The translations under genes were made by a program, and so were the position numbers. Below the pieces are notes generated by a model. It was given only the letters and a program-made list of their open reading frames with translations. It was not told where the DNA came from and searched no databases. DNA of 64,000 nt, from assembly GCA_000092065.1 (NCBI GenBank), contig CP000601.1. One strand, 5' to 3'. Positions 40,367-61,355 of the stretch are shown here, one piece after another; position 1 is the stretch's first letter, and every line of letters begins with the position of its first letter. This stretch comes from Ostreococcus lucimarinus. Lineage: Eukaryota.

Positions 40367-41302
40367 ATGCCGCCGCGCCCTCGCGCGGACGCGTCGGTGG
40401 ACCTCGCGCGCGCGCGCGCGAGCGCGGACGACGTCTCGCATCGCCTGTCGGACACGCGCGCGCGCACGGTGCAGGCGGTGGAGCTCACGGAGCGCGCGCT
40501 GAGGGAATTCAGAGACGCGGACGCGCGCGACGCATCGAAACCGCGATCGACGCTCGTCTCGCCGTACGACGGCGAGGAGGACGAGGAGGGCGGAGATAAC
40601 GAACTCACGGCGCTGGTGCGGCAGCTGGAGTCGTTCGCGGAGAAACGAACGGGGACGGGACAGGCGCCGCGAGGGGCGAACGGGACGAGCGGGACGACGC
40701 GCGGCGAACGGGAACGAGAACGGGAACGAGGAGGGGATAAATGGAGCGTGAAGAGCGGAGATAGCGGCGATGGACGATCGATGAACGATGAAAATTCGTT
40801 GGTCGGGTACTCGATGATGTACGGGAGCACGGTGGACGACGATGGGAGCGCGGCGGACGCGGATGAGCTCGCGAGCGAGTTTTCGGTTGATTTTTCGCTG
40901 CCGAGCGAACGCGTGGCTGGGGGTGCGACGGCGAGGAACGATAAAAAGAGCGAGCTCGGGAGCGTGAGTGGGCGGATAAACGCGGTGAGCGATAGTTTAA
41001 CGACGAGCAAGTCGCGATTGCACGAGAGCATCGCGAGCTTGGAGCTCGAAGCCGGGTTGACTGAAAACGGCGCCGAGATGGATTTCGAGCAGTACAAGGA
41101 CGACATGCCCGTGGTCGGGAACACGAAGACCGGTCAGGTCGTCATCGATTTAGCCGCGAGAGGCGTGAACTCGCTCAGTCGATCGAGTTCGCAGTTCATG
41201 GGCGAAGGCAAAGGCGGTCGGGGCGGCGACGGCGCCGAGCTCAGTCCGCTTGTGCGAATGTTCAATAGCGTGTGCGGCGGTTGTTGCGCCCTGCGCAAGT
41301 GA
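40367..41302 (+). CDS. Hypothetical acidic/Ser-rich protein with a C-terminal Cys cluster (CGGCCALRK)
   Basis: 311-aa ORF with non-Arg-biased composition in its second half. No recognisable domain. Confidence 0.4.
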   Translation: MPPRPRADASVDLARARASADDVSHRLSDTRARTVQAVELTERALREFRDADARDASKPRSTLVSPYDGEEDEEGGDNELTALVRQLESFAEKRTGTGQAPRGANGTSGTTRGERERERERGGDKWSVKSGDSGDGRSMNDENSLVGYSMMYGSTVDDDGSAADADELASEFSVDFSLPSERVAGGATARNDKKSELGSVSGRINAVSDSLTTSKSRLHESIASLELEAGLTENGAEMDFEQYKDDMPVVGNTKTGQVVIDLAARGVNSLSRSSSQFMGEGKGGRGGDGAELSPLVRMFNSVCGGCCALRK

Positions 41303-41461
41303 CGCCGCGCGCGAGATGACAACCACCACTAGCTACGGTGGGTGCGTGTAAAACTAAACAGCGCAGCGCGACGCGATTCGACGCGACGCGCGCGCTCGAA
41401 TCGAGACGAGCGTCTCTCGGCGCCGCCGCCGCCCTCGCGCGTCACTTCGAGCCCGCCCGCC

Positions 41462-42610: not shown

Positions 42611-42658
42611 TTAAAATCGACAACAAATTGTAGGAGACGCGGCGAAGATAATCAGCCA

Positions 42659-43750
42659 TTACAAATTGTACGCCTCGCAGCTCTTGACGCCGTTCTCCTT
42701 GCAAAACTCGATGCTCAAATCCCAAAGCTTCGCGTTAGACTCGGCGTTTTTCGCGCGCGGCGCCATGGCATCGGCGCCGAAACCGGCGAACGCTTTGGAT
42801 AAGAGAGGCATGCCGAACATGTACGTCGCGCTCTTGTGCATCTTGAACAGCTTGGACATTTTAATCTTGAACGGCATGTAAAGCGTCGCCTTTGTTATGG
42901 ACGGCAGCGACGCCGCGTTCACGCTCGTCATCGCTCCTTGCGCGGGCGTCAAGGCCAAGATGCTCATGATCTTTCGCAAAACCGGGTTGTAATCTCTCCA
43001 AATGTTGCTCGCCACGAAGCCCGGATCTGCGGCGGCGCAGACGATCTTGTTATCCGGATACGCCGCATCCAATCGTCGCTGCAGCTCCACCGTCATCGCC
43101 AAACACGCCAACTTGCTCGACCCGTAGTTCCCCTTCGTCTTACTCGCACCCTTGTAGTAGTACTGATACTTGTTTGACCCGAACCACGTCGTCACCGAAC
43201 TCAACGCCACCACCCTCGCGCCGTCGCTCTTCATCAACTGCGGCAACAACAACGACGTGAGCATGAAGTGTCCGAGATAATTCACCCCCATGCATATGTC
43301 GTACCCTTGTTTCGTCGTCTTCGGTCCACTGTATCCGCTCGCCCCGTTCAATCCCGCGTTATTCACCAAGACGTCCAATTTTTCATACTCCTTCCCAAAC
43401 TTTTCCGCGAACGCCCTGACGCTCGCGGCGTCGCTCAGATCGAGCGCCATCACCGCCACGTCGTTCGCGCCCCCGTTTGACGCGTACTCGAGCGCCGCCC
43501 TCGCTCTGTCGATCGAGCGACACGCCATGACGACGCGCGCGCCGGCGTCCGCGAGCAACCTGGCCGTCTGCAACCCGATCCCGGTGTTCGCGCCGGTGAC
43601 CACGGCGATCTTACCGCGCATGTCCACCGCGCACGCGGCGCGAATGCCCATGGCGCTTCGTTGGACGACGTCGACGACGGTCGGGCGCGATCGCGCGCGC
43701 GACGCGACGTCGCGGCGGAGTGACGACTTTATCCACTTCGCTCGGGACAC
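42659..43750 (-). CDS. Short-chain dehydrogenase/reductase (retinol dehydrogenase/WWOX-like)
   Basis: TGANTGIG cofactor motif, NNAG and the catalytic YGSSK. The start may be the internal MGIRAAC or MRGK. Confidence 0.8.
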   Translation of the reverse strand: MSRAKWIKSSLRRDVASRARSRPTVVDVVQRSAMGIRAACAVDMRGKIAVVTGANTGIGLQTARLLADAGARVVMACRSIDRARAALEYASNGGANDVAVMALDLSDAASVRAFAEKFGKEYEKLDVLVNNAGLNGASGYSGPKTTKQGYDICMGVNYLGHFMLTSLLLPQLMKSDGARVVALSSVTTWFGSNKYQYYYKGASKTKGNYGSSKLACLAMTVELQRRLDAAYPDNKIVCAAADPGFVASNIWRDYNPVLRKIMSILALTPAQGAMTSVNAASLPSITKATLYMPFKIKMSKLFKMHKSATYMFGMPLLSKAFAGFGADAMAPRAKNAESNAKLWDLSIEFCKENGVKSCEAYNL

Positions 43751-43860
43751 TTTTCGGCGCGACTCCGAGGCGCGACGCGCACGTCGCGACGCGCCGACGC
43801 GCTTCGACCGGTCGCGCGCGCGCGGACGAGCGACGATAGACGCGGGCGATCGTCGAGACG

Positions 43861-44505
43861 ATGCCGGCGCCGACGCGACCGCCGACGCGACACCACCACT
43901 TCGAGACTGGGACGTACAAACCGAGCGGGCTGTTCCTGCCGGACGACGAGTACGGACGCGCTTTGGACGCGCTGGTGAAGGGCTGCGTCGATTGCTTGCT
44001 GACGAACGAAAAGGGAGAGGTTTTGCTCGGGCTGCGCAAGCACGAACCGGCGAAAGGGACGTGGTGGTACATCGGTGGACGGATGCGCACGGGGGAGACG
44101 GTGGAGGAGACGGCGAGACGGCACGCGAAGCGAGACATCGGGATCGAGATCGACACGGAGCGGTTTCGATTCGTGACCACGAGCACGATGAATTGGGAAT
44201 TTCGAGTGCAGGAGCCGGCGGGGAACGGGACGTGCGATATTAACGTGGTCCTCGCGGCGACGCTGACGGAGGAGGAAATCGCGCGCAAGACGATGTGCGC
44301 CGACGAATATTTAGATCAAAAATTTTGGTCCGTGGAGGACATCTTAGCCGTGACGGACGAAAAAGTGATTTTACCGCCGATTCACATCTCTGCAAAGAAA
44401 ATGGTGTGGTCTGAACGCGAGGATGCGATGTACGCGGCGGTGGCTCGCGGCGCGGACGACGCGGAAATCGCCCGACTCGCGCGCCGCGCGTACGAGTTCG
44501 CGTGA
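43861..44505 (+). CDS. Nudix hydrolase
   Basis: Nudix box GGRMRTGETVEETARRHAKRDIGIE (GX5EX7REUXEEXGU-like). Confidence 0.75.
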   Translation: MPAPTRPPTRHHHFETGTYKPSGLFLPDDEYGRALDALVKGCVDCLLTNEKGEVLLGLRKHEPAKGTWWYIGGRMRTGETVEETARRHAKRDIGIEIDTERFRFVTTSTMNWEFRVQEPAGNGTCDINVVLAATLTEEEIARKTMCADEYLDQKFWSVEDILAVTDEKVILPPIHISAKKMVWSEREDAMYAAVARGADDAEIARLARRAYEFA

Positions 44506-44726
44506 AGCGTTCGACGTGGCGGACGCGGGCTTTCGCGAAGCCATAGTTAGACGCAATTGTTTTAATGATTGATGCGCAAATGTTTTCGTGTTGTTACACT
44601 AACTGACTAAGTAAGAAGTCTTCGATCATCGTCGTGAAAATTGGCGCGGCGGAGCGCACATCGTTAGCGCTGCCCATCCTTGCTTGAAAAAATGTTGTTT
44701 GTTTATCTTTGTCCGATATCGTTCGA

Positions 44727-45383
44727 TTAGAACAGCGCGGAGCCGCCCATGATCTTTTCGACGATCGGCAACGCGACGAGACCGATCATCGCACCGCGAC
44801 CGTTCGTCATCTCCGCCTCCGCGCGGAACGGCCCGAACGCCTCGGGCGCCTCGTCCAAGCCGTTCGGCGACGACTTCTTGAGCGCCGGCGCCAAAGAGGA
44901 CGCCAAGGTCAAGATCACGCAGGCCGGCACGAGGAAGAACCCGGCCGCCGGGTACGTGGACGTGCGCGTGATGCCGTCCGCGAGCGTGAACGTGCGTTCG
45001 TTGAACAATTGGTGCATGAAGCTCGTGTTCGACGTCAGCTCCACGTAGAGCGCCGCCGTCCACCCAATCATCGCCGCGCGACCGTTGATCGTCTCCACCG
45101 CGCGCGAGTCCTTGAACGCGAGCATGACGGAGTCGAGCATGGAGTTATCGTTCCCGAGCGGCGCCGCTTCGGCGATGGAGCCGTCGGCCGGGTCGATCGC
45201 GTCGACGCGCATCGTCGGCTGCTTGGACGCCGCGTCGGCATCCTTCCACTCGGAGTTCGCCTCTTCGACCGCCTTGGAGACGTCGTTTTCGGCGCGGACC
45301 GCGACGGAGGCGCGGCGGTGCGCGCGCTGCGTCTTGACGACGGCGCGGGCGGCGAGTTGGGGGCGAGTCGTGACGGCGAACAT
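44727..45383 (-). CDS. ELIP/LIL-type chlorophyll a/b-binding-like protein
   Basis: Two LHC motifs, ETINGRAAMIGW and AEMTNGRGAMIGL, separated by a hydrophobic helix. Transit-like N-terminus. ATG at 45383. Confidence 0.75.
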   Translation of the reverse strand: MFAVTTRPQLAARAVVKTQRAHRRASVAVRAENDVSKAVEEANSEWKDADAASKQPTMRVDAIDPADGSIAEAAPLGNDNSMLDSVMLAFKDSRAVETINGRAAMIGWTAALYVELTSNTSFMHQLFNERTFTLADGITRTSTYPAAGFFLVPACVILTLASSLAPALKKSSPNGLDEAPEAFGPFRAEAEMTNGRGAMIGLVALPIVEKIMGGSALF

Positions 45384-45766
45384 GTCGTGCGTGCGTGTGC
45401 GAGAGTGACGCGATGCGGCGCGCCGTCGACGGTGACGTCGAATTTTGTCATTTTCGCGCGTCACTGTTTACGCATACGAGCGGTCGGTCGCGCGACACGA
45501 ATCGTCGACGTCGACGGTTCGCGCGTGACGTCACGCGACCGCGCGACGAAACGCGCGGTCGCCGCGGTCGACGCGGTCGACGCGCGCGCGGTCGGAGGCG
45601 AGGCGTCGGCGTCGGCGTCGCGCGCGACGCGCGAAGCCCGCGGGGCGCGCGGCGAAGGGCGCGGCGAGACGCGACGGTGCGCGCGACGACGCGATGGACG
45701 CTTTATGACTTTATGGGTCCTCGGGACGAGGGGGCGAATGTTACAAGTTTGAGCGATGCGCGCGAT

Positions 45767-47947
45767 TCATCGCCCGTCGCAGACGTCCGCGACGTCGTCC
45801 GGTCGTCCGACGATGACGTCTTCGCGGTCGATGGTGACCATGCCGAGCCTGGCGCCCTTGGGCTTTTTCACGTACTTAGGAGACGTGTACGAAACGTTGA
45901 CTTTGCCGCCCGTTCTCACTTTCGAATGAAAGCTCGCGACGTTGGCGGCGAATTGGATGTCGTCGTCTGAGGCGGTTTCGCCTGGTTGTTGGCGAAGGAT
46001 GACGTGCGCGCCCGGGGCGCCGCGAACGTGAAACCACACGTCTTGGTCTTGTCCGAAGAAAAGCGAAACCGCTTCGTTTCCGCGGCTATTTCTTCCGCAG
46101 TACACCTCCTTTCCACTCGGCGCGGTATAGATGCGAATGGCGTTCATCATCTCTTGCTTACGCGCTTGCTTACCGGTTTTCGGCTTCGCGCCGCCGCCCT
46201 TCTTCGCCGCCGCCATCGCGCGCGTCTTCGCGTCGGCGCCCTTGCCCGTGGGCTTTAAGAATCCACCGTCCACGAGTTCGGCGCCAATTTCCTCGATGAA
46301 CAATAAATCGTCGCGCGATTTGAACTCGCTGACTTCGAGAATACTAAATTCGACGCCCTCTAAATACTCAATCTCGCTCGCATTTTGTTCGATGAGCGGC
46401 TCGACGGCGTCGGCGGTGCGACGCAGCTTTCTCGTCTTTTTGTACAGCGCCTCGGCGGTGCCCACAGGACCTTTCTCGGGATCTACTTTAAACATCACTG
46501 TCTCGCCCGTGGTGAAGTCTTGACCCTCAAGCTCGCTCGAACCAGGCTTATAGTTGTAACTGTACGCCATCAACGCGTCGGCGAGCAGTTGAATTTCTTC
46601 GTGCCCGCTCGCCGCCTCTAATTGCTTGCGGAACCCAACGTCTTTGCTCGCCAACTTTTTCAGACGCGCGCGCACGGCTTGTAAAATGCGCGAGCGTTCG
46701 CGCTCGAACACGTCGGTTTCGCCCGCTTCGCCGTACACAGCGCCGAAAAGAGCGCCGATCGGCCCGCCGGCAACGCTCAAATCGTCGGCGGCGGGCGGCA
46801 AGACGACGCCCGCGGACGACGGGTGCAATAACAACTGCCCGAACTCTTCGCACCACGTGGCGTTTGCGAGCGTACCCGCACTGTCGGCATCACTTGAAAC
46901 GCTCGCAATCCATCGCATGAACTCATCGTACACGGCGACCCAATCGCTCGCACTCGCGGTTTCGACGCGCTCGCCATCGGCGACGCCCGCGCCGCGAATC
47001 AACGCCTTGGCCAAAGCCGGTGACACCCCTCGAAACGCGCGCACCATGCACTCATCCAAACGCGCTTCGCCCATATCACCACTGCGACCGCGTGCGACGT
47101 CGCGCAACACCGCGGTCCATCCGTCCACGCCCCCTTCAACCCCGGTCGTGGGATCGATCCCGGGCGCCGAGGGCGGCGGCTCGTACGCGTACCCGATCGC
47201 CAATCGCCGCACACTCGTCTGTTTCTCCCCAACCTGATACCCACACGCTAAAACTTCATCATTATTTTTACTATCAAGCAAGAACGCGTTGCTGTACCGC
47301 CCCATGACCTCACACAACAGCTCGTACTCTGCCTCACCTCCCGGCCTATCGCCGAATCGCAACCGACACGCGCGTTCCCACGCCGTCCCCACGCGCGCAT
47401 CCAGCAGCACCTTCCCCTTGAGCAGCGCGTTCGCGCTCTCGCCAAAACTAAGATTCATCCCCTTCTCCACCTTGGCCCCGCGCGCGCTCATCGCGACGTG
47501 CGCGGTCACCGGGTGCCAACTCACTCGCACGCTCCGCCGTCCATCCGCCGCGCGCGCGTCCAGCGTCATCGAGTGCGCGTCCACCTGCGCGCACGCGTCG
47601 ATCTTCACCGGCGTCGACAGCGCGTTTATCTCCCGCACGCTCGCGACGAGGGCGGTGTAATCGAACGTCGCGGGCGTCGCGCGCGCGGCGCGAACGACGA
47701 CGAGCGAGCGGCGGTGACGCGGCGACGGCGCGCGCCGCGGCGACGCGAGCGACGCGATGCGCCAACGCGCGCGCGCGGGGATGCGTGACGCGCGGTACAT
47801 GACGCCGAGCGCGGGCGCGGGCGGGCCGCGGGCGCGCCGCGGGCGGACGCGCGCGAGGGAAAGTGAGGACGCGGCGCGAGCGGGACGCGAAGCGTCTCGG
47901 CGAAAGGTTCGGCGCGCGAATGAATATCTGGCGATGAGCGTTGACAC
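45767..47947 (-). CDS. NFACT-family protein (bacterial FbpA/RqcH-like ribosome quality-control factor) with an N-terminal extension
   Basis: FbpA-like N-domain (FDYTALVASVREI...VSWHPVTAHVAM...GYAYEPPP) and an NFACT-R/DUF814 module (DVWFHVRGAPGAHVILRQ...VNVSYTSPKYVKKPKGARLGMV). The roughly 95-aa R/A/S-rich leader may be partly upstream of the true start. Confidence 0.75.
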   Translation of the reverse strand: MSTLIARYSFARRTFRRDASRPARAASSLSLARVRPRRARGPPAPALGVMYRASRIPARARWRIASLASPRRAPSPRHRRSLVVVRAARATPATFDYTALVASVREINALSTPVKIDACAQVDAHSMTLDARAADGRRSVRVSWHPVTAHVAMSARGAKVEKGMNLSFGESANALLKGKVLLDARVGTAWERACRLRFGDRPGGEAEYELLCEVMGRYSNAFLLDSKNNDEVLACGYQVGEKQTSVRRLAIGYAYEPPPSAPGIDPTTGVEGGVDGWTAVLRDVARGRSGDMGEARLDECMVRAFRGVSPALAKALIRGAGVADGERVETASASDWVAVYDEFMRWIASVSSDADSAGTLANATWCEEFGQLLLHPSSAGVVLPPAADDLSVAGGPIGALFGAVYGEAGETDVFERERSRILQAVRARLKKLASKDVGFRKQLEAASGHEEIQLLADALMAYSYNYKPGSSELEGQDFTTGETVMFKVDPEKGPVGTAEALYKKTRKLRRTADAVEPLIEQNASEIEYLEGVEFSILEVSEFKSRDDLLFIEEIGAELVDGGFLKPTGKGADAKTRAMAAAKKGGGAKPKTGKQARKQEMMNAIRIYTAPSGKEVYCGRNSRGNEAVSLFFGQDQDVWFHVRGAPGAHVILRQQPGETASDDDIQFAANVASFHSKVRTGGKVNVSYTSPKYVKKPKGARLGMVTIDREDVIVGRPDDVADVCDGR

Positions 47948-47977
47948 GCGCGCGCGTTCGTTCGGTCGGTCGTTTGT

Positions 47978-49108
47978 CTAGGATGTCTTGGCCGATTTCG
48001 GGGTGACTTCCTCGGCGCGCGTCTCGCGAAGGAAGACGCGGTCTTCGGGCTTGTTGTTCTCTCGCTCTTCGTGCGCGTACGAAGACGCGATGGCGAGCAA
48101 GGACCCACAAGGACTGAAAGCGAGCGCTGAGATGGAGGTGGGGTAGCGGGGCGACTGAAAAAGTCGCTTTTTAGCGTCGCCATCCCAAAAATTGACGTAA
48201 CCGTCGCCGCCGCCCGTGGCGAATGTGCCGTGGACGGGATGAAACGCCACCGCGTGGACGGGATAAACAATCTCACCCACGCTCGCGTCATCGGTTTTGC
48301 GATGACACTTGAACGCATATTTTCGCTTGTCGTTCTCTTCATCGCGTATGAACTCCACCGCTACGCGTCCCTCGACGCTCGCGGCCACGAATCCATCGCC
48401 TCGGATATTTGCTGCGATGGCGCGCGTTTGAAACCGCATGCTCGAACGTCTATTTATCAACGGACGCGGCGGCGCTTCCGACGCGCGTCGTCCGTCATCA
48501 CCATCCACACCGCGCACTAAATCTCGCGTCTCGTACGCCAAAACTTGCCCATCGCTCGTCGCCACGAAAATCTTACCGTCTCTCAAATCCGCCGCGTAGC
48601 ACTTCCCAGCCGTCTTCGTCGTCGACACCGCGCGCCCTCGCTCGTCCTTCGTCAAATCCCACGCCCTAATCGTTCGATCCCAGCCAAACGTAAACAATTT
48701 CTTCGTCGCATCATCGTACTCCACCGCCGACACCGCGCCGTCGTCGTGCGCGCCGACGACGCGAAACGCGCCAGTTTTAAAATCGACGAGGCGCACCGAC
48801 CCGTCGAGGCATCCCACGCACGCCGCGTCCTCATCCGTCCCGACGAACGTCCCGCACAGCGCGGGCGCGCCCAAATCGATCGAGTTCAACGATTTCACGT
48901 CCCCGATCTCGCGCGCGCGGCACGCGTACCGCCGCGCGGTCCCGTCCCAGGACGTCACCAGGAGCGTCAACCGTCGCGCCATCCCATCGTCGTCGTCGTC
49001 GCGACCCTCTCCCGCGCTGACCGCGCAGAACCGCACCGCGCTGACGCCGTCGCCGAACGCCGCGCCTCCGGCCCCTCGCACGTCGCGACCGAGGTCTCGA
49101 TGCGCCAT
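47978..49108 (-). CDS. BUB3: Mitotic checkpoint WD40 protein BUB3
   Basis: KYAFKCHRK...IVYPVHAVAFHPVHGTFATGGGDGYVNFWDGDAKKRLFQSPRYPTSISALAFSPCGSLLAIASSY closely parallels plant BUB3. Confidence 0.85.
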   Translation of the reverse strand: MAHRDLGRDVRGAGGAAFGDGVSAVRFCAVSAGEGRDDDDDGMARRLTLLVTSWDGTARRYACRAREIGDVKSLNSIDLGAPALCGTFVGTDEDAACVGCLDGSVRLVDFKTGAFRVVGAHDDGAVSAVEYDDATKKLFTFGWDRTIRAWDLTKDERGRAVSTTKTAGKCYAADLRDGKIFVATSDGQVLAYETRDLVRGVDGDDGRRASEAPPRPLINRRSSMRFQTRAIAANIRGDGFVAASVEGRVAVEFIRDEENDKRKYAFKCHRKTDDASVGEIVYPVHAVAFHPVHGTFATGGGDGYVNFWDGDAKKRLFQSPRYPTSISALAFSPCGSLLAIASSYAHEERENNKPEDRVFLRETRAEEVTPKSAKTS

Positions 49109-49381
49109 CGCGCGCGCGCGTCTCGCGCGCGCACCGCGCGCGCGTCCCGACCGTCACCGCGACGACGTCGTCGTCGCCCGCGCGCGCATCGGTTTATCGC
49201 CGATCGACGACGGTCAAACGCGCGTTCGGGCGCCGTCTCGATCCATGTGCGATCGCGATGACGCGCGCATAAATAATCATCGCCGCGACCGAACGCGCAT
49301 TGCGACGCGCGCGAACGCCGTGTCGTGCGAGCGCGTCTCGCGCGGGCGTCGCGCGCGCACCGCATTTCGCGACGGCGGTCG

Positions 49382-52300
49382 ATGCGGGCCCCGTCGCGCG
49401 CGCCGTGCGCGTCCGCGCGCCCGGAGGCCGGCGTCGTCGACGCCCTCGATGATCTCGCCGCCGTCGACGCCCGCGCGTGCGGCATCGGCAAGCTCACGAT
49501 CGCGCACGACGACGACGACGACGACGCGCGAGGTCTCCGCCATCGCGACCGCGGCGCGTTCGCCCTCGATTTGCGCGCGTGGTCGTTCACCGCGCGCACG
49601 CAGCCGGTCCGCGCGCTCGGGGCGTGCGCGCGAGACGCGTCCGTCGACATGCGCGTGCCGTTCAGGGACGAATACGAGCGACACAGGGCGTCGCGACCGG
49701 ACGAACGCGCGCCGCGAGGGGCGAGTTGGCGCATCCATCGAGTGCGAGGATGGCGCTTCGACCTGCGCGCGCTGTACGAGGAGGTGAAAAGACGCGGTGG
49801 CGCGGACGCGATCGATGGAAATCAAGGCTGGCGCGAGGTCGCGGAGGCGATCGGGGCGCACGGACGCGGATGCGCGGCGGGACACGCGGCGAGAGCGCTG
49901 CACGGGGCGTGGCTGGAGGCGTTCGCGCGCGACGCCAAGCGAAGAGAAGACGCGGTGAAGAGCGCGCAGTTCGACGCGGTGAAGGGAGAGATCGAACAAG
50001 ATGACGCGCTGGCGATCGATGCGCTGTGTGGGCTCGAATTTGGGGCGTCGGGCGCGCCCGAACGGCGAGTCAAGGTGGAAAATGTGCGTAATTCGTGCCA
50101 TATCTTCTTCGCGCGGGACCGGGATGACGGCGAATCGCACGCGTTCGCGGCGCGTGCGACGCGCGCGCGCGATGATGGGCGTCGCGATGACGTGCGACTG
50201 ACTTTTACGGCGCGTGTTTTCGCGACGCAGGGCCTCGATCTCGTCGCCTCGCAGCTCGCGGACGCGCCCGAGGGCGACGCCGACTGCGACGTGTGCGGCG
50301 CGAGCGGGAACGAAGACGCGATGATCCTGTGCGATGGGTGCGATCGAGGGTGCGTATACGACAATGCCACGCGAGAACGCGCGCGTGAAAATTATCTCGA
50401 TCGTTCGGACGCGCGTTCGGGGAGAGAGAGCGCTCGCGCGGCGCGCGAGGGCGCGGCGAACGCGCGCGTGGGCGACGGTTAGACGTGGGGTTTAGAGGCG
50501 CGCGGGGGAGAAGGAGCCGCGAAGGAGCGACGAGACTGACGAATGATGCGCGCGTAGGTCACATATGTACTGCTTAACGCCGAAGATGACTGAAGTGCCG
50601 AGTGGAGAGTGGTTTTGTGGACGATGCGAAGAGATTGACGCGGAGGTGGAGCGATTGAGCGCGGATGAAGGGACGCAGTTTACGCTCGGCGATTTCAACG
50701 AGGCGTGCATAGAATTTGATACGGCGTTCTTTGGCGAGGACGCCAAGCGAACTGGGATCGATATGCAGGTGATTGAGGAGTGTTTCTGGCGAATGGTTGA
50801 AGATGCGAGCTCGGTGGATGATGTTTGCGAGGTCAAATGCGGCACGGCGATTGACACGACAAAGTACGGAAGCGGGTTCCCGAGACACGGCGAAGCGCTT
50901 CAGGTAAAGATTGACGGCGTGAGCCCGGAATCTATCAAGCGCTGGTCAGAGTCGAAATGGAATCTCAACAACGTCGCGCGCGCGAGTGGGGAAAAGTCGT
51001 CGCTACTGGGCGCGTTGAAGGATGACGTGGCGGGCGTGACGACGCCATTCTTAGAAGTCGGAAGCACGTTTAGTTCCACGACTTGGCGTCGAGAAGAGCA
51101 TAACATGTACAGTATCACTTACAATCACTGGGGTGCCGCGAAACTGTGGTACTGCGTGCCGGCGAGTGCAGCGGACAAGTTGGAAGAATGCTTCCAGAAG
51201 GTGATGCCCGACGTCTACGAGGCGCACGTCAACGATTTGGGAAGCGTCTTTACGATGCTCTCGCCGAGCTTCTTGATGAGCGCGGGAGTGCCCGTGCACA
51301 CGTTGGAGCAATTCCCAGGAGAATACGTGGTGACGTATCCCGGGGCGTACTACGCGTCGTTCAACTGTGGATTGAACTGCACGGAGAGCGTCAACTTTGT
51401 GCCCGCTGACTGGCTCCCAGAGGGCTCGGCGAGCGTGGAGAGAAACCGATCGTACGCCAAGCGTTCATTGTTTAGTCACGACGAGTTGGTTTGCAGAGTA
51501 GCAAACAATCCTAGTTCGAGCATAGCGCCGCACTTGTGGCCCGAGATTGCGCGCTTGTACGCTGAAGAGGCAAACGGTCGCGCCGAGCTTTTCGCGTCTG
51601 GCGTGACGCGCAGCGCGCAAATGACGTCAGCAGACGACGACGACGACGACGATGGCTGCGAAAAGCCTCGTAAAGTACGATCTAGGTTTGACGATGCATC
51701 GAACTCTGGATCCGATGAGTGCGTTGTTTGTCGACACATTTTGTACTCGTCTGGCGTCGGGTGCTCGTGCGACGAGACGCGCAAGGCGTGCTTGCGACAC
51801 GTCAACGACTTGTGCAAATGTGCGATGTCGAAGAAGACGATGTTTTACAGAGAAACAGTGGCTGATTTAGAAAGTCTGGTGAAGAAGACGGAGAAGGCGC
51901 TTTCTCAGAAGGAACTAGCCAGCTTAAAATCCAAGCACAGCGACTTGGACTCAGTCACAGTGAACAAGAATCTCGTCAAGAAGGCTCAGGCTTGGGTGAA
52001 ACGAGTGGGCGAAGAGCTCGTCAAACCACCTTTGCCGCCGCTGGACAAGATGAGAAATTTACTCGCTGCGGGTGAAGAGTTTATTTGGGGTGGTGCTGAT
52101 ATGAAGGCGGCTCGAGAAGCGTACACTCGCGTGACGAACGCCGTCGCGTGGCAGACGAGTCTTGTGGCGCTGAAGCAAAGGCTTGGATCCAGTGCTGGTG
52201 CCGAGGCCGCGCACGATGACGCTGGTGAAGCGCGATTGAGATTGAACAGACTAAAAGAGCTCCTTGACAACCCACCGGTACCGATGCCTAAGGCTGATAC

Positions 52301-54224
52301 TCAACCTTTCCGCGATTTGCTCGCGGCGGGCTTGAAATTGGAGGAACGCATCAAGGCGGCTCTCGCCGAGGTACCGAATCCATCTCCTCGCGCTTGTACG
52401 ACGCTTCAAACTGAAGCGAATAAGTTTGGTGTGGAAGTCCCTTCATATAAAAAGCTGAAGGACGTCATCGTTAGAGCAGGCGCGTGGTCCACGAAGGTGC
52501 GCGGCGCGCTTCCAGGACGACGACAACTCCCGCCGCGCGAGGAACTAGCGAATGCTCGAGAGATCGAGGCGTTATACGAAGAGGCGCATGGATTACCCGT
52601 TCAGCAGAGCGAACTCTTGACTTTGCGCAAATCTTTAGAAGAGTTGAATTTTTGGCGCGCAAAGTCTGAGTCGCTGTTCGTCGCCAAGGTTGACGTGGAA
52701 GAAGCCGAGGCGCTTCTCAAGGAGGGCATGGCGTTGTCAACAAAACTCGACGAGGTCGACAGACTAGCCGATCAAATCAAAGCTGTCAAAGTGTGGGCCG
52801 ATCATGCTCGAGCGAGTGATTATCCGGGAGCAAGAGTGACGGATTTGCACATGCTTCTCGTCGAGGGTGAAAAGTTTAGCGTGCGAGTGGACGAAGTCGA
52901 GTGGTTGCGAAACCGTATCGTCGTCCGGGAGCTGGCAGAGAAATTGAAGGACATGGTTTCATCGAAGAAATATCCGCTCGCCGAAGTCGAAGCGGCCGTG
53001 CGGGCGGGTAACGAGTTCCTCGACTCCGAAGATAAAGAGGTTGCCCCAGATGAAGAAGCGCTGCTGGCGCAGTGCGAGAGCCACATCAACGCGGCGAAGA
53101 AGTGGAACGAGCGCGCGGCGGTGATGCTCAAATCTCTCGATAGTAAGGACCGACCGTCACTCGAAGACGCCGCGTCGCTCATCCGCGAAGGAAGCTCGAT
53201 TCCAATCTTTCTGAATGGATTCGACGTGCTTTCAGAAGCGGTCAATGTAGCCAAGTCTTGGTTGGATCGTGCACAACCTTGTTTGAAGGGAAAGCAGCTC
53301 ACTCGTCGCGGTGTGTCAAATCCGATTCCGCCGCTTTCCGAGGCGCAAGAGCTCATGAAAGAGTCTTCGAACTTGAAATTGTTTGTCAAGGAAGTTGAAG
53401 CTTTGGAAGAACGCGTCGAAGCCGCAGAAGAGTGGGACGTGGACGCGAAGGACGCCATCGAGCGCTGGCGAGAAGACGGCGCCGAGGTGACGTTGACCGA
53501 GCTTGAACTTTCGCACGAAGACTTTGGATTAGAATTACCAGCCATGGAGACAGTTCGCATTCGTTTAAAGTCGCTCAAGTGGGAAGAACGCGTCGCTAAG
53601 ATCATTGCACCCAAGGCGAAGCTCGTCGAGGACACCGTTTTGGACGAGCTCAGGGAAGAAATCGACGTGCTTCAAGACTTGAAAGAGGATCTTGTCGCTG
53701 AAATCATGAAACGGTACACGATTGTGGACGAATGGCGCAAGAAAGCGGATCGTTTGCTCGATCCTCCTCTCCTTGAAGACGGTCGATTGGCTCCGAGTGC
53801 ATCACCGGAGGAAATAGACGCCCTCATCGCCGAAGGCAAGGCACTTCCCGCTGACGTCTCGAAGGTAGAAGACCTCGAGGCGTCGTTGGCGGATCACGCA
53901 CAGTGGGTCGACACCGTTCGTAAGTGCTTGAACAGTGTCGCTGAAGGTCGATCTCGCCCTTCGATTGACGAATTATACGATCTTCTAGCGGAGGTGGAAG
54001 ATTTGACCTTCAAGTGCTCAGAGAGACAAGCGCTCACAAATGCGTGCAACGCCGCCACGGCGTGGACGGAGAGGCTCAACGCGTTGCTCTGGGCAAACGA
54101 TCAGGGTGAAGTCAAACAAGAAAAAACGCTTATCGAAATGTTGAGCAATGTTCTTGATTCCATCAAAGCTGGTGTGGAAGACATCACCGGGACTGGCGAA
54201 CCGCCGGAGACGGAGGAGGGTTAG
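49382..54224 (+). CDS. KDM5/JARID-type protein (JmjN-like, ARID, PHD, JmjC, C5HC2, PLU-1 region); exons 49382..50349 and 50558..54221, ending at an in-frame TAG
   Basis: ARID (WRFDLRALYEEVKRRGG...GWREVAEAIG). PHD1 is split by an intron (CDVCGASGNEDAMILCDGCDRG|SHMYCLTPKMTEVPSGEWFCGRC). JmjC (FSSTTWRREEHNMYSITYNHWGAAKLWYCVP ... GEYVVTYPGAYYASFN). C5HC2 (CVVCRHILYSSGVGCSCDETRKACLRHVNDLCKC). Confidence 0.85.
50350..50557 (+). other. Spliceosomal intron (208 nt, phase 2) inside the PHD1 coding region of the KDM5-like gene
   Basis: GG|GTGCGT donor, GAGACTGACGA branch-like motif and GCGCGTAG| acceptor. Splicing restores the C-x2-C-x4-H-x2-C spacing (CDGC-DRGS-H-MY-C). Confidence 0.85.
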
Positions 54225-56087
54225 TTCTGCCTTTGTCGACAAGCTGGAGGAATTCAAATGGTTGGATGTGATGATTGCGGTGACTGGTATCACTTAAAAT
54301 GTATCAATGTGACGCCTACTATGGCAAAGACGATGCACAATTACATCTGTCCGCCATGCATCGCGAAGAGTGGCAAGGCGAGCGCACTCTCGTTGGATAC
54401 GTATCGCTCGGTGCATCGCACCAATCGCCCAAACGTCATGCTTTTGCGAGAACTCCTCGGTGAAGCGCAGCGATTTCCTGGAGAAGTGCCAGAAGAAGCC
54501 GTGTTGAATCAAGTCATCAATACTCACGACGCGTGGCGATTGGAAGTACGAAAGACTTTGCATAGAAAGAGTATGAAGGAAGCACACGACAACGCCATCA
54601 GTCAAGCTTCGAAGATTGCCCAAGAAGCAGCGATGAGAGAATCTGAGGAACGCACACGACGAATCGCCGAAGCGTCGCTCGCGGCGACTGCAGAGAACCC
54701 CAATCCTCCAGCTTCTCTCACGCCATTACAGCAAGTCATGCTGATGGGTCAAGCTGTCACGTTCGCCGCAACGCAGCGCACGCACGCGTTGAACATTTCG
54801 CCGTGTTCGCAGGAGATTTCAGATGTCGTCACAAAGCAGCTCGGGCAACTTCAACAGCTCGCCATGCAACTCGCGATGTGCCAAGCTCAAATTCACATGG
54901 CTCCAGTTCGGTCTAGGCCCCACATCCTCCACGTCTTGATGATGCAGCAACAGCATCTAAAGATGACAAACGAGCACGAGGAAGAGCTGGCAAATGTTGG
55001 CGCTAGCAACTGGCTCATGGAAGCGACTCTGCAACTATCTGGAATGTCTGGCATGATGCCGCCGCCGACGGCGCAAGACACCGGCAAAGAACCTTCAACA
55101 TCCACGGGTCATGGTAGTCCAAGCGATATGTCTGCTCAGTTGAAGACGAACGAACCGATGATGGTTCCGCAGCAGTTCATGTTGCAACCGGCCATGCCAT
55201 CGCTTGTCGGCGACGCGTCTGGAATGCCCAAGCAAGAGATGGATTACACGTATGACATTCCTCGAAAAGATAATGTCGATCCAGCGCTGCAAGTGTACGC
55301 GGGCATGAAGGGTGCTCTGGCGATGGAGCTGGAACCTGTTGAGGAGACGCTCGCGTTGATGCGCGAAGTGTGCGGTCCGGCGTGGAGAGAACAAGCCACG
55401 CGGCTCATGACTGGTGCGCCGTTCCCGAGGTTGATCAAGCTTCACGAGCTCAAGGAATCTGCCATGGCTGCTGGTCTTTGCCCTGGTGCCGGCATTGATC
55501 CTTTGGCCGATCGCGCGCACGCGTTGGAGGTTGCTGGACAAATCTGGCTCGAACGCGCCGCCGCCGTCGTGCAAGACAAAACGATTCCTATCGAGGCGGC
55601 GCAGTTGCTGCTTCAAGAGGGTCGATCTTTGCCTTTATACTTGAAGGAGGAGCTCGAGGAGTTGGGAGAGCGATGCGAACTGTATTGCGTTTGCCGAAGC
55701 GCGTACGACGCTCTCAGGCCGATGATTTGCTGCGATCGATGCGATGGTTGGTTTCATTACGAGTGCATCGGCATGCAGTCGCCGGCGCCGGGCGAGGAAG
55801 ACGAAAACGCCGAAAACGTCAAGTTTGCCTGCCCAGAGTGCTGCGCGGCGCAAGGTATTCCGTACGTTCCGTTCCGTCCAGCGCCGAAGGACACGGACAA
55901 AGCGCCGGAGCGAGCCGCGCCTCCGCCGGCTGAAGAAGCTCCGGAGCCGCCAAAGACGGAAGAAGAAGCGAAGCCGCCCGCTAAACCAGAACCGGAAGTC
56001 GCGGACAACAAGAAGAAACGAAAAACGGTGGAGCCGACTCCGCCTGCTAATAAAAGTACCTCTAGTCGCAGCAGAAGACGAAAGTAG
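54225..56087 (+). CDS. In-frame continuation of the KDM5-like gene (two C-terminal PHD fingers, Q/M-rich region, K/E/P-rich tail)
   Basis: Same frame as 50558-54224. FCLCRQAGGIQMVGCDDCGDWYHLKCINV...YICPPC starts at the codon right after the TAG. The second PHD is YCVCRSAYDALRPMICCDRCDGWFHYECIG...FACPEC. The ATG at 54258 would truncate the first PHD. Confidence 0.6.
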   Translation, partial: FCLCRQAGGIQMVGCDDCGDWYHLKCINVTPTMAKTMHNYICPPCIAKSGKASALSLDTYRSVHRTNRPNVMLLRELLGEAQRFPGEVPEEAVLNQVINTHDAWRLEVRKTLHRKSMKEAHDNAISQASKIAQEAAMRESEERTRRIAEASLAATAENPNPPASLTPLQQVMLMGQAVTFAATQRTHALNISPCSQEISDVVTKQLGQLQQLAMQLAMCQAQIHMAPVRSRPHILHVLMMQQQHLKMTNEHEEELANVGASNWLMEATLQLSGMSGMMPPPTAQDTGKEPSTSTGHGSPSDMSAQLKTNEPMMVPQQFMLQPAMPSLVGDASGMPKQEMDYTYDIPRKDNVDPALQVYAGMKGALAMELEPVEETLALMREVCGPAWREQATRLMTGAPFPRLIKLHELKESAMAAGLCPGAGIDPLADRAHALEVAGQIWLERAAAVVQDKTIPIEAAQLLLQEGRSLPLYLKEELEELGERCELYCVCRSAYDALRPMICCDRCDGWFHYECIGMQSPAPGEEDENAENVKFACPECCAAQGIPYVPFRPAPKDTDKAPERAAPPPAEEAPEPPKTEEEAKPPAKPEPEVADNKKKRKTVEPTPPANKSTSSRSRRRK

Positions 56088-56135
56088 TTCTCTAGATTTA
56101 CAACATTTGACACAATAAACAACAACTTCAATAAT

Positions 56136-57362
56136 TCAACCGTCCAGGTGCTCGTCCCATCCCAGGTCTCGTTTCGGCTTGCGCCTACCGACCAACTTGG
56201 CCGCGTCCAGTTCGGTCAACAATTCAATTTCGTCGAGTGTTTCCTCGCTCACATCGATGTCGTCCGTCACCGCGAGCTTTTGACCCTTTCTATGACGCTC
56301 GACGAGTTCTTCGAGATATCCTTGCTTTGCGTAGTTCGGTATCAACCTAGACATGTACACGCCGCGCAAAATACGTTTTTCTTCCTCAGTCAAATCGCCG
56401 TGAAACCCTCGGCGGTTGATCCGGTCCGTCACGGCGTGCGACATCACGAGCGCGGCGGCGACGGAAATGTTCAAAGACTCGGTGAAGCCAAACATCGGAA
56501 TGTACACGGCGCCATCCCGCAGCGCTCGCGCCTCGTCCGAAACCCCCTCGCGCTCGTTCCCAAACACCACCGCCGTGGGCACGGTCCAATCGTAATGCGA
56601 CAGCGGCTGCGCGCCGTCAAACTCAGTCGTAAGAACGCGGTATCCTTTCGCCTTCGCGACTCTGAGCGCGCGTTCCGACGTCTCAAACTGCTCCACGTGT
56701 TGCCACTTCAGCGCCCCTCCCGACGTCCTCCCGCTCGCCTTGAACGACAGCCCCTTCGAGCTCACGATCGACGCGCACCCGATCCCCAGCGCCTCCGTCG
56801 TCCGACACACCGCCAAGATATTGCCGACGTCGTAGACGCCCTCTAGAATCGGCAGCAACGAAAAACTTCTATGCTCCAAAACGTTTTCCAGCCGCATGCG
56901 TCGCTCTTCCCCGACCATCGCCGTCGCGAGCGCCACCATCGTCTCCGTCTCGCACGTCGCCCTCGCGAACGCGAATCCATCGCCGTACGGGAATCTTTCC
57001 CTCTCGTCCTCGTTCGCGCGCGTCCCCAAATCTTCCCGCCGCGCCCGCACCAGCCCGTGAAACTCCAGCGCGTCCGGCGCCCACGCGCGCTGCCTTCGGT
57101 GCGCCTTCGCGCTCTTCGTCGCCACCGCGCCCGTGCGCGCCACCGCGCGCGTCGGTCGCGGCGTCGTGCGCTTCACGACGACGTCGTGCGGGCCGGCGTG
57201 CGCGCGCGACCCCGGTTCCGACACCGATTCCGATTCCGCCGCGTCGTCGTCGCGCGCGCGTCGCGTCGCCGGTCGAGCGACGCGCGCGGCGCGCTCGCGA
57301 GCGTCGCGTCGATTCGCGTCGATTCGCGATCCCGCGCCCGCGATCGCGCGCGTCGACGCCAT
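56136..57362 (-). CDS. SpoU/TrmH-family RNA 2'-O-ribose methyltransferase
   Basis: RMRLENVLEHRSFSLLPILEGVYDVGNILAVCRTTEALGI, AVVFGNEREGVSDEA and IPMFGFTESLNISVAAALVMSH (SPOUT motifs 1-3). Arg-rich, presequence-like N-terminus. Confidence 0.8.
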   Translation of the reverse strand: MASTRAIAGAGSRIDANRRDARERAARVARPATRRARDDDAAESESVSEPGSRAHAGPHDVVVKRTTPRPTRAVARTGAVATKSAKAHRRQRAWAPDALEFHGLVRARREDLGTRANEDERERFPYGDGFAFARATCETETMVALATAMVGEERRMRLENVLEHRSFSLLPILEGVYDVGNILAVCRTTEALGIGCASIVSSKGLSFKASGRTSGGALKWQHVEQFETSERALRVAKAKGYRVLTTEFDGAQPLSHYDWTVPTAVVFGNEREGVSDEARALRDGAVYIPMFGFTESLNISVAAALVMSHAVTDRINRRGFHGDLTEEEKRILRGVYMSRLIPNYAKQGYLEELVERHRKGQKLAVTDDIDVSEETLDEIELLTELDAAKLVGRRKPKRDLGWDEHLDG

Positions 57363-57384
57363 TCGAATCGCCGCGCGACGCGAA

Positions 57385-57394
57385 GTGTCGACAT
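57385..57394. promoter_or_regulatory. Isolated exact RTGTCGACAY match (GTGTCGACAT) in the divergent promoter between the SpoU methyltransferase and the 57461 gene
   Basis: Single copy, so functional relevance is unknown. Confidence 0.2.
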
Positions 57395-57460
57395 CGCGTC
57401 GCGCGGCGATTCGAATCGCGTCGCGCTCGAACGGCGTCGCGTCCTCGCGACGCGCGCGCG

Positions 57461-59032
57461 ATGACGCGCGAACGTCGCGCGCGCGCCGCGCGGTCGCGGG
57501 GCGCGCGCGCGCGCGAGACGATGGCGGCGGTGACGCTCGGGACGTTTTTGGTGTTGGGACGCGCGGGCGCGTTTCGCGGCGCGAGCGCGCGGCGCGCGCC
57601 GCTACAGGCGATGGACGCGGGCGCGGGAAGCGCGGGAGGGACGGCGTCGCGGCCGGCGCGGCGATGGATGACGCACCTGCTGCGCGATCACCCGGAGATG
57701 CGATGCACGCAGATTCCGAGCAAGCCGGTGATCGTCGGCGGCGACGGCGGCGGCGCGGGAAAGCCGCTGATGGAATTCCTGAGGGATTCGAACGCGGTGA
57801 CGTTCGGACCGACGGATAAGGATGGGAACAGCGACGCGGAGCGGTTGAGCGGGTTGGATGACATGGTGGTGGACGTCATGGCGTTTTCGAAGCGGTTGCT
57901 GTACGAACCGGATGATTTGCCGATGGATTTGCAAGCGGATTTAGCGAAACATTTGTGCGATATGTTTGCGAGACAGGAGAAGTGGTTGCACCCGGGATTG
58001 ACGATGAATGGGATACAACACGATCAAGAGGTCGGGCGGTGGGGATGGAAGGATCCGTTGGCGATGTATTTGGTGCCGATTTGGAGAGACGTGTACGGGC
58101 CGTCGGTGACGTACGTGCACTTGGTGCGGGATCCGCGGACGCTGCCGCTCGGGAATTTGCACGACAAGGAGCGGGATTTACAAAAGGCGTACTTTGGTCA
58201 AGAGCGATGGGAGCAGTTGACGGCAAAATTTGAATCCGAGTGGGCGCATCTCTCCCAGCACCAGTCGATGACGAGCGTGAAGAAGGACGACGTGATTGAT
58301 TTATTGCGCACGACGGCGTACTGGACGTCCATCAACTTTGAGCTCGGGGCGCTCATCAAGGGCCCGCTCAAGAACTACGCCACGGTGCTCCGGGCGGAGG
58401 ATTTGGTGCAACCGGACATGGATCACTTCCGACGCGACGCCACCGGGAAAAAACCGGAAAAGTACCAAGCCGCGCAAAAAGTCATGCAAGAGCTCACGAC
58501 GCTCCTCAAGCTCCCGGCGAAACTTTCCAACACGCTGGGAAGCCACGAACACATGAAGCAAAACCTCCGACGGTTCACGATCCACCGCGAAAAGTTCGTC
58601 TACCGCACCGACTCCCCCATCATCGAAGTCCAAACCCGCATCGCCGAGAAGACGTTGGAACTCTTCGGCTACTCCGCCGACGCCGCGCTCTTCGTCTCGC
58701 GGCACCCGTCGTCGAGCGAGCCCCACGGCCATCGTCTCACCCCCGAGGGCGAGTACATGCACGAGGAGCACAGGTATACTCCCGACGATTTCGAGCCCAC
58801 GATCGAACCCGCGTCGGAGGGCGATCTTCCCGGCATCACCAACCACGTCCTCGGCGCTCAGCTCAAGTACACCGACCGCGTCGAGCTCGAGCGCGCCAAG
58901 ACGCGCGCGCCCGACACGGAGCAATCTCGCGCCGTCGAGGCCCAGCTCATGGAGGCTAAGAAGAAGACCTTTTTGCTCGAAACCACCAAAATCGACGGCA
59001 AGTCTCTCAAGGACGTCATCGACCATCTGTGA
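57461..59032 (+). CDS. Sulfotransferase-like protein with an N-terminal signal anchor (assignment tentative)
   Basis: MAAVTLGTFLVLG hydrophobic start (alternative ATG at 57521). GGGAGKP, WGWKDPLAMYLVPIW and YVHLVRDPR loosely resemble the sulfotransferase 5'-PSB/3'-PB regions. Confidence 0.4.
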   Translation: MTRERRARAARSRGARARETMAAVTLGTFLVLGRAGAFRGASARRAPLQAMDAGAGSAGGTASRPARRWMTHLLRDHPEMRCTQIPSKPVIVGGDGGGAGKPLMEFLRDSNAVTFGPTDKDGNSDAERLSGLDDMVVDVMAFSKRLLYEPDDLPMDLQADLAKHLCDMFARQEKWLHPGLTMNGIQHDQEVGRWGWKDPLAMYLVPIWRDVYGPSVTYVHLVRDPRTLPLGNLHDKERDLQKAYFGQERWEQLTAKFESEWAHLSQHQSMTSVKKDDVIDLLRTTAYWTSINFELGALIKGPLKNYATVLRAEDLVQPDMDHFRRDATGKKPEKYQAAQKVMQELTTLLKLPAKLSNTLGSHEHMKQNLRRFTIHREKFVYRTDSPIIEVQTRIAEKTLELFGYSADAALFVSRHPSSSEPHGHRLTPEGEYMHEEHRYTPDDFEPTIEPASEGDLPGITNHVLGAQLKYTDRVELERAKTRAPDTEQSRAVEAQLMEAKKKTFLLETTKIDGKSLKDVIDHL

Positions 59033-59135
59033 GGTGTAATTAAAACCAAACGCGCCTCGCGCGTCCCGCCGCGTCGCGAACGACCGTTCAAACCCGCGCG
59101 CTGGATGTGCGTCACATCGCGCCCGGTCGTCCGTC

Positions 59136-61355
59136 ATGGACGCCCCCGAGCTCGCGATCGCGCTGGACGAGCTCGCCATCTTACCTCCCGCGTCGCTCGC
59201 GCACGTTCCCACCCTGCGCGCCGCGCACGCCGCGCTCCGGTCGTCCCAGTGTCCCGGCGTCGCCGCCGCGCCCGCGCGCGACGTCGCCGACGCGCCCGAA
59301 CAGCTCGACGTCGACCGCCTCCACGACGTCTTCGACGCGTGCGCGCGCGCGGGGTGCGCGTCGGTGATCGCGCACTACGTCGACGAAGTGTGCCTGAGCG
59401 ACGATGGAAGGTTCTCGAGCGACGACGGCGCGGAGGCGTACGCGCGGGACGGGGCGTGCGCGAGCGCGTGGGCGCGAAGAGCGACGAGACGAGCGAGCGA
59501 AAGAGTGCACGCGAGCGCGGGAAGACCGCGAGAGGCGAGAGTGGCGGCGGTGGAGGACGCGATGCGAACGCTGGAGGCGGCGCGAAGGACGGTGGAGGCG
59601 CTGGGAGGATGGAGAGAGGACGGGGACGAGGCGAACGCGGAGCGAGAGGCGCTGCGAGCGACGGCGGATGAAGTGGTGACGAGACAGCTGCAGGCGGAGG
59701 CGCTGCTGTGGGCGGCGAGAGAGGGATTGAGTGATGCGGTGGGGGCGCGATACGGTGGACCGGCGGCGTGGGCGGGGGCGGTGCAACGGCGAAGGAGCGC
59801 GGCGGCGAACGGGGACGCGCGATTCGGAGGCGCAAACGCGACGACGTTTTTAGATGATTTACTCGCGGGGGTGGGCGAGCATCAGCCAGCGTATCCGTTC
59901 AAGACGGTGACGGATGCGGCGAAGTGCGTGTTCGTGGACGGGAGCGCGTCGCCGGCGGCGCTCGTGGCGAAGAAGTGTTTGTTTCTGTACTTTTTGCTCG
60001 ATTCCGGCTTGCCGCACGACGGGTCGCCGATGGAGTACGCGCGACAAGCGCGTATTCATCCGAGGTTGTTTCAAGAAACGCGCGCAGCGGTATTGCTCGA
60101 TGACTCAGAGAACGAGGCGTCGCTCGACGAGGCGTGCGCGCTCTTACCTCGCGTCGCGCATCCGTTGTTGCCGGTGAAGTTTATCGCGAGTTTAGCTCGA
60201 CGCGGTCGCGCGACGACGGCGTTAATGGTGGCGCGCGCGCGCGCGCCTTCGTCCTCGGACACCGAGGCCATAGGTTTAGATGTTTCAATCCGTCTCGCGT
60301 GCGGTCTCATCGCCGAGGCGTTTATCGCCGTCAGAGACGCGTTCAAGACGTTTCCCGAATTGCGCGGCGATTCAAAATCAGGCGCATACCTCGTGAGTCT
60401 GTTGTTAGATCACGGCGTCGAGAAGCTTTGCCTGGACAAGGTCCTCGAGCTTCCGTTTTACGGCGAGATGGAGAAGTTACTGCTCGACCTCTTGTGGGCG
60501 CGACGCTCGGAAGTTCCCGTGGAGACTGGAATTTTGTACTTGCTCAACCGAGGACGCGCGCTCGAGGCGTCCGAGTTGTTCTCCAAAGCCAGAAGTGAAG
60601 GGCGTTTAGAAGACGAGCACGCCGCGAAACTCGTGAAGCGAATGCAGGAGAGTTTGTCACGCTTGCCGGTGCCGCAAAAAGTACTCGTGGCGGAAGCCGC
60701 GAGGCAAAGAGGCGACGACGACGCCTTGTTGGCTCGCTCGCTCGTCGTGCGGGACGCATCGGAGGACGCTTTGGCCACCACCGCGAGCGCACTGTTGATC
60801 GATGAAGTCAAGGAATTCGAGGCCGTGTTGAAGAGCGAAGACGCCGCCGTCGGCATCTTGCCGTTTCTCAAACCACCCATCGAACTTGCGCGCGAGCGGC
60901 GAGAGCCGTCGATCGACAGCGCGACGGCGGCGTTGGCCACGACGATGTTGGTAAGCCCGGGCAAACCTTTGACGTTCGTTCGACCGCACGACGCGAAGGC
61001 CGATCGTCGCAGCGCGCTCGAACGCGGTCCGTCGTCCTCACCCGCTGGCATCAAATCTCTGATGACTCCGTCGGGCGCGCGAACTTCGAGCTACACGGTT
61101 CCCGAACCGACCATGTACGCCTCACCGTTCGGTGCGCGTCGTCGACCATCACTGGACGAGCCCACCGTCGCACCGCCGCCGAAGGATCACACCGCGTCTT
61201 TGCTGTTCGGCGCGCGTCCGACGCCGCTTCCCGGCGGAGACTTCCCATCCTTCCTCTCGCCCGCGCCCAAGCGCGCCGCGCGTGCATCGACGCGCGACGA
61301 ACGCGGCGATCCCTCCGACTCTCCTCGGCGTCGAAGCTCACGACTCGCGAAATAA
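59136..61355 (+). CDS. ELYS-domain-like protein (possible nucleoporin ELYS/HOS1-related), assignment tentative
   Basis: KKCLFLYFLLDSGLPHDGSPMEYARQARIHPRLFQETRAAVLLDD...LDEACALL and LELPFYGEMEKLLLDLL recall the ELYS nuclear-pore-assembly domain. The C-terminus is disordered and S/P/R-rich. Confidence 0.4.
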   Translation: MDAPELAIALDELAILPPASLAHVPTLRAAHAALRSSQCPGVAAAPARDVADAPEQLDVDRLHDVFDACARAGCASVIAHYVDEVCLSDDGRFSSDDGAEAYARDGACASAWARRATRRASERVHASAGRPREARVAAVEDAMRTLEAARRTVEALGGWREDGDEANAEREALRATADEVVTRQLQAEALLWAAREGLSDAVGARYGGPAAWAGAVQRRRSAAANGDARFGGANATTFLDDLLAGVGEHQPAYPFKTVTDAAKCVFVDGSASPAALVAKKCLFLYFLLDSGLPHDGSPMEYARQARIHPRLFQETRAAVLLDDSENEASLDEACALLPRVAHPLLPVKFIASLARRGRATTALMVARARAPSSSDTEAIGLDVSIRLACGLIAEAFIAVRDAFKTFPELRGDSKSGAYLVSLLLDHGVEKLCLDKVLELPFYGEMEKLLLDLLWARRSEVPVETGILYLLNRGRALEASELFSKARSEGRLEDEHAAKLVKRMQESLSRLPVPQKVLVAEAARQRGDDDALLARSLVVRDASEDALATTASALLIDEVKEFEAVLKSEDAAVGILPFLKPPIELARERREPSIDSATAALATTMLVSPGKPLTFVRPHDAKADRRSALERGPSSSPAGIKSLMTPSGARTSSYTVPEPTMYASPFGARRRPSLDEPTVAPPPKDHTASLLFGARPTPLPGGDFPSFLSPAPKRAARASTRDERGDPSDSPRRRSSRLAK

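Follow-up and report, generated by a model that had tools for sequence, protein, structure and literature searches.

A premature TAG codon in the KDM5/JARID-like gene of Ostreococcus lucimarinus CCE9901 is very probably a recent nonsense mutation

What does a single in-frame stop codon signify when it divides a conserved gene just before one of its domains? The question is raised by a KDM5/JARID-like gene of Ostreococcus lucimarinus, located in a 64,000-nucleotide stretch of contig CP000601.1 (assembly GCA_000092065.1) that was analyzed as a whole and is here called the window; all features described below are on its plus strand. A TAG at positions 54222–54224 is the sole stop between two open segments, 50547–54221 and 54225–56084, which share a common frame. 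Translation across the stop reads ...GTGEPPETEEG*FCLCRQAGGIQMVGCDDCGDWYHLKC. Two codons past the TAG, a PHD finger begins. The original prediction, made from the letters of the sequence, had described this split and listed same-frame ORFs at 50565–54224 and 54258–56087; we find the stop, the shared frame and the ORF coordinates as they were given. It left several readings side by side, among them a small intron, stop-codon readthrough, a recent nonsense mutation and a sequencing error.

The gene is reconstructed from two exons. Exon 1 (49382–50349), whose start codon is provisionally set at the first ATG, encodes an ARID domain and the first half of a PHD finger (PHD1), as detected with Pfam. 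It is followed by a predicted intron inside PHD1 (50350–50557; 208 nt, phase 2), which begins with GTGCGT as its donor, ends with TAG as its acceptor and contains a branch-like CTGAC motif. The intron is placed on the basis of a frame change between the segments and of the CDGCDRGSHMYC PHD motif that splicing restores. Only once it is removed is PHD1 complete, matching profile positions 1–47 with 46.3 bits (Pfam) and reading ...CDGCDRGSHMYCLTP.... Exon 2 upstream of the stop (50558–54221) encodes the second half of PHD1 and, among other Pfam matches, the KDM5 C-helical region, with JmjC at 51051–51398, a C5HC2 zinc finger at 51720–51878 and PLU-1 at 53103–54086. The ARID domain, PHD1, the JmjC fold, the C5HC2 zinc finger and PLU-1 are thus all present above the Pfam cut-off, and among PDB structures KDM5A is matched best (E = 4e-70).

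The remainder of the gene lies behind the TAG. PHD2 (54228–54359; Pfam PF00628, residues 2–45 of the segment 54225–56084) has its first cysteine at 54228, and the PF00628 profile begins at residue 2 of that segment. PHD3 (55683–55844) comes next; a basic tail runs from 56010, and the gene closes with its natural stop, likewise a TAG, at 56085–56087. With glutamine in place of the premature stop, the spliced coding sequence encodes 2165 amino acids, of which the TAG is codon 1545. PHD2 and PHD3 are encoded in both alleles described below, behind the stop in one and within the same polypeptide in the other.

Two adjacent long frames are weak evidence for a split gene on their own, because 23 such pairs (each frame at least 150 codons) occur within this window of GC-rich DNA. 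The split is meaningful here because the two halves match one family, with PLU-1 before the stop and a PHD finger after it, and because the homologues are continuous.

Relatives carry glutamine at the position of the stop. A homologue search returned four proteins, none of them from O. lucimarinus, and two of these read ...EEG-Q-FCLCRQ... across the site. At the DNA level, three related loci read CAA or CAG where the window has the TAG. A metagenome scan added 80 more loci, and the codon count was made on the 81 loci with a readable motif. Every one of the 81 has a glutamine codon (CAA in 59 and CAG in 22) and none has a stop; they span Ostreococcus clades, a group of approximately 50% GC, and Micromonas-type loci. 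This comparison of the orthologous position had been proposed in the original prediction. The DNA alignment over the site is colinear and free of gaps. Among Ostreococcus-clade haplotypes, variable sites fall at codon positions 1:2:3 in a ratio of 13:11:36 across the 38 codons upstream of the TAG, and 3:1:27 across the 38 codons downstream. Variation is thus biased toward third positions on both sides, which indicates that the sequence on both sides of the TAG is coding.

That both sides are coding refutes the proposal that a small intron ends at the TAG and removes it. The 38 upstream codons are exactly those that the proposed introns of 51–114 nt would delete. The GT donors put forward for such an intron (54174, 54150 and 54111) do occur at the positions and in the phases reported, and the real intron of the gene likewise ends in TAG. 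However, these donors do not have the GTGCGT form, as had already been remarked, and no branch motif of the CTGAC/CTAAC type accompanies them. The 17–38 codons to be removed keep their sequence and length over the 81 loci, with variation biased to third positions. The residues concerned (…GVEDITGTGEPPETEEG) are conserved and colinear, and show codon-level constraint, in all relatives. Furthermore, the CAG allele, found on the same haplotype (see below), is a continuous ORF. We therefore regard the chance that an intron ends here as practically nil. A separate donor-like hexamer, GTTAGT, overlies the TAG itself (54220–54225); it was rejected as a splice site, as an intron starting there would delete conserved PHD cysteines.

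Programmed readthrough, or decoding of TAG as glutamine, would preserve the full-length protein, and it might be suggested by a stop that sits on a glutamine codon and is followed by an intact frame. The downstream frame is intact, however, because the mutation is young, and the stop itself is conserved in none of the 81 relatives. TAG also ends the adjacent WD40 gene, whose product of 376 amino acids has the length common to most members of its cluster, and it ends the KDM5/JARID-like gene itself. The context of the premature stop (GGT TAG TTCT) matches that of the natural one (AAG TAG TTCT) in the shared TAG-TTCT. The 120 nt past the stop fold no better than shuffled sequences (z = +0.9), and a tRNA scan found no tRNA gene in the window. 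No other in-frame TAG was present among the Pfam-supported genes checked in the window. TAG is a normal, working terminator in the O. lucimarinus genome, and codon reassignment is unsupported. The readthrough option thus finds no support, and we give it hardly any credence.

Among assembled contigs of the same haplotype, one carries the TAG allele and others the CAG allele. Window proteins are exact matches to the O. lucimarinus CCE9901 entries XP_001420982.1, XP_001421123.1 and XP_001421124.1. The Logan contig SRR1179203_456 (18.9 kb), from a run whose independence of the reference is perhaps incomplete, matches window positions 40565–59283 (18.7 kb) with 100% identity, including the TAG. Two further contigs, compared like the first as assemblies rather than as reads, have C at 54222. 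SRR23274481_3577 differs from window positions 41205–64000 (22.8 kb) by this C and by an intergenic 48-bp deletion (57361–57408), found in this one of the two intact-allele runs, and by nothing else. In SRR847308_1758, compared with positions 49643–56139 (6.5 kb), the C is the sole difference. Both read CAG and contain an uninterrupted ORF of 1840 amino acids.

Such near-identity is not expected of independent isolates. Environmental contigs of O. lucimarinus diverge from the window by 0.06–0.4%; over 22.8 kb this predicts 14 or more differences, and the probability of one or fewer is approximately 1e-5. The near-zero divergence observed instead shows that the TAG and CAG alleles belong to one clonal haplotype. 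Taken together, the sequences indicate that the TAG mutation is extremely young and that CAG is ancestral. The mutation is restricted to one line, and CCE9901 stocks apparently differ at 54222.

Three non-synonymous changes, at 54222, 54675 (Ala to Ser) and 55434 (Leu to Ile), are private to the window when it is compared with the environmental contigs. The latter two might be read as a sign of relaxed selection after the stop. We rejected this reading: the intact CAG allele carries both, and they are thus strain alleles and not decay.

The same contigs bear on whether the reference is simply in error at a base that is truly C. The two runs with an identical haplotype have C, as do all relatives, which is what an error in sequencing or assembly would predict. 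Against this, the T appears again in the de novo assembly of SRR1179203, a separate SRA run, where it is embedded in 18.7 kb that match the window at every base, and the reference annotation has the split product at two loci. An error, one of the options originally listed, is accordingly very unlikely.

We conclude that the CCE9901 KDM5/JARID-like gene very probably lost a conserved glutamine codon through a single C to T transition at 54222, CAG becoming TAG, as the related loci and the same-haplotype contigs indicate. The DNA of the sequenced line carries this change. The sense codon is one mutation away, an intact allele exists on an identical haplotype, and the TAG recurs in the SRR1179203 assembly. 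Of the readings first proposed, it is therefore the recent nonsense mutation that the data support, given CAG on the same haplotype and glutamine in all relatives. The TAG is an ordinary nonsense allele; it is neither an intron boundary nor a recoding signal.

Within the single clonal lineage in which the mutation would have arisen, a difference between culture sublines is the most likely origin. A second origin has to be weighed, as chromosome 21 of O. lucimarinus is described as fused from duplicated parts of chromosomes 9 and 13 (PMC2367439). When ten more window proteins were looked up, 32.9–57.4 kb of the window proved to lie inside a duplicated block, and neighboring proteins have two GenBank/RefSeq accessions each. 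The copy on chromosome 13 or 9 and the copy on chromosome 21 might therefore differ, one having TAG and the other CAG. Short-read assemblies could collapse such near-identical copies differently and report one allele each, and the TAG and CAG runs follow no time order, going by their accession numbers. However, the 609-aa split product is itself entered under two accession pairs (ABO99414.1 and ABP01192.1), and both numbering series put one unnamed model between this product and a Nudix protein. This suggests that both reference copies carry the split, and hence the TAG. Moreover, no assembly has both alleles. A paralogue-specific stop is thus unlikely, and an origin between the duplicate copies on chromosomes 13 and 21 is less likely than one between culture sublines. 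Whichever origin applies, the nonsense mutation is young.

The mutation is predicted to truncate the protein. Translation would end after residue 1544, and the product would retain the ARID-PHD1-JmjC-ZnF-PLU-1 series. It would lose PHD2, a PLU-1-like stretch, PHD3 and the basic C-terminal tail, and with them its reader function. In addition, nonsense-mediated decay might act on the mutant mRNA.

The public annotation already splits the gene, since the downstream ORF of 609 amino acids (54258–56087), which starts at the ATG at 54258 and contains a truncated PHD2, the PLU-1-like stretch, PHD3 and the basic tail, is listed as a protein of its own. It is an exact-sequence match to the “predicted protein” entries XP_001421121.1 and XP_001422833.1. 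A survey of the JmjC family (PMC9029850) does not mention the split.

Could the downstream ORF be the product of a functional fission, expressed in its own right? Its annotation as a protein would favor this reading. Yet its start lies inside PHD2, and as first predicted the result is a broken finger, with only PHD profile positions 13–47 matched and the first two zinc-ligand cysteines missing. No relative has a separate gene at this locus. To our knowledge, reinitiation is not to be expected after an ORF of 1544 codons. Separate translation of the 609-aa ORF is unlikely, and a functional fission seems scarcely believable. The annotated downstream “gene” would instead be a by-product of the split and not an independent gene.

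These observations are mainly of practical value, to annotators and to those who work with the strain; they offer no new recoding or splicing biology. The CCE9901 reference genome carries a private allele of the loss-of-function type in its KDM5/JARID-like gene, and the 609-aa entry XP_001421121.1 (“PHD-type domain-containing protein”) represents only a piece of the protein, split off by the mutation and with a broken PHD finger. Those who use the reference for comparative or epigenetic work should take the intact 1840-aa ORF (2165 aa when spliced).

A more speculative reading, which we consider improbable, is that the CCE9901 line has fixed a truncation of the PHD2/PHD3 reader module in a KDM5-like protein whose JmjC iron ligands had already been lost in the whole Ostreococcus clade. 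If this were true, and if the truncation were either tolerated or favored in culture or a sign that one copy had begun to decay after the duplication from chromosome 13 to chromosome 21, TAG and CAG sublines would form a natural isogenic pair, with which a non-catalytic KDM5-type function could be tested in a minimal eukaryote.

The encoded protein is similar in architecture to the KDM5/JARID1 H3K4 demethylases. Human KDM5A and KDM5B and Arabidopsis JMJ14 have the same domain order, ARID-PHD1-JmjC-C5HC2-PLU-1-PHD-PHD. KDM5/JARID1 proteins also have a JmjN domain at the N-terminus, whereas none was detected in exon 1 of the Ostreococcus gene by Pfam (E ≤ 0.01) and no JmjN-like sequence was seen in the three upstream frames, where a 5' exon may have been missed. 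A further difference concerns the Fe(II) ligands of KDM5A, two of which are replaced out of three (H483 to R and H571 to Y). In the alignment to human KDM5A, the Ostreococcus protein reads WRREEH against WHIEDH and GAYYASFN against RAYHSGFN. These substitutions are common to other Ostreococcus-clade loci, while a Micromonas-type homologue retains the H-x-E...H triad. Judged by its residues, the Ostreococcus protein has a KDM5-like architecture but is probably not an active demethylase.

Substituted iron ligands are also found in JARID2 (Jumonji), a catalytically inactive relative among the JARID proteins; such substitutions in JmjC suggest a non-enzymatic role in chromatin. JARID2 has neither PHD fingers nor PLU-1, whereas the Ostreococcus protein has the KDM5 domain set. 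JARID2 chains are matched at E ~1e-34, far worse than the KDM5 match.

The mutation itself most resembles the premature stop alleles that are specific to a strain or culture and become part of a reference (unitary nonsense polymorphisms). In these, too, a stop replaces a conserved sense codon through the change of one base, an intact allele persists in the lineage and throughout the species, and annotation is split into two “genes”. By this comparison, nothing is unusual about the TAG of CCE9901 except its location within a block that also has a copy on chromosome 21.

Every protein checked between about 32.9 and 57.4 kb of the window has two GenBank/RefSeq accessions, one in the ABO99xxx and one in the ABP01xxx series, and EF-1alpha has three in GenBank (ABO99278.1, ABO99358.1, and ABP01268.1). 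The paired accessions are consistent with this region lying in a block of the CCE9901 genome that is duplicated between chromosome 9/13 and chromosome 21. We found that, besides the T/C difference at 54222, the two sublines or copies carrying the TAG and CAG alleles of the KDM5-like gene are distinguished solely by a 48-bp indel at 57361-57408, in the divergent promoter region that separates the SpoU-type methylase from the gene following it. An 11-bp direct repeat (ATTCGAATCGC) borders the 48 bp. The window and the TAG-bearing assembly from SRR1179203 both contain them, as do environmental contigs, and the CAG-bearing contig from SRR23274481 has the deletion.

A second apparent in-frame TAG, at 47978-47980, was rejected. 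This codon terminates the WD40/THOC3-like gene on the minus strand and by chance shares the reading frame of the NFACT ORF downstream, which is a gene of its own. Elsewhere, the neighboring plus-strand ORFs at 7242-10292 (1016 amino acids) and 10458-11867 (469 amino acids) belong to one protein cluster at 90% identity. Its listed members are mostly about 1025-1053 amino acids long, and one member is named WD repeat-containing protein 35. The two ORFs may be pieces of a single gene, or tandem relatives.

The KDM5-like gene (50547-56087) has a third-position GC of 0.59-0.63, clearly below the 0.74-0.81 of surrounding genes. Its poly-Asp tract (SADDDDDDDG, about 51632) has one GAC fewer in the window than its counterpart in the environmental contigs (L004 and L006), and thus the intact ORF measures 1840 rather than 1841 amino acids.

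The iron-binding triad of its JmjC domain (51051-51398) is degenerate. The positions of KDM5A H483 and H571 are occupied by Arg (WRREEH) and Tyr (GAYYASFN), respectively. Both substitutions are common to the Ostreococcus-clade loci (L001, L003, L004, L012, and L025), compared with the Micromonas-type homologue (L002), which retains H-x-E...H. The KDM5-like protein could be a JARID2-like reader that no longer has catalytic activity.
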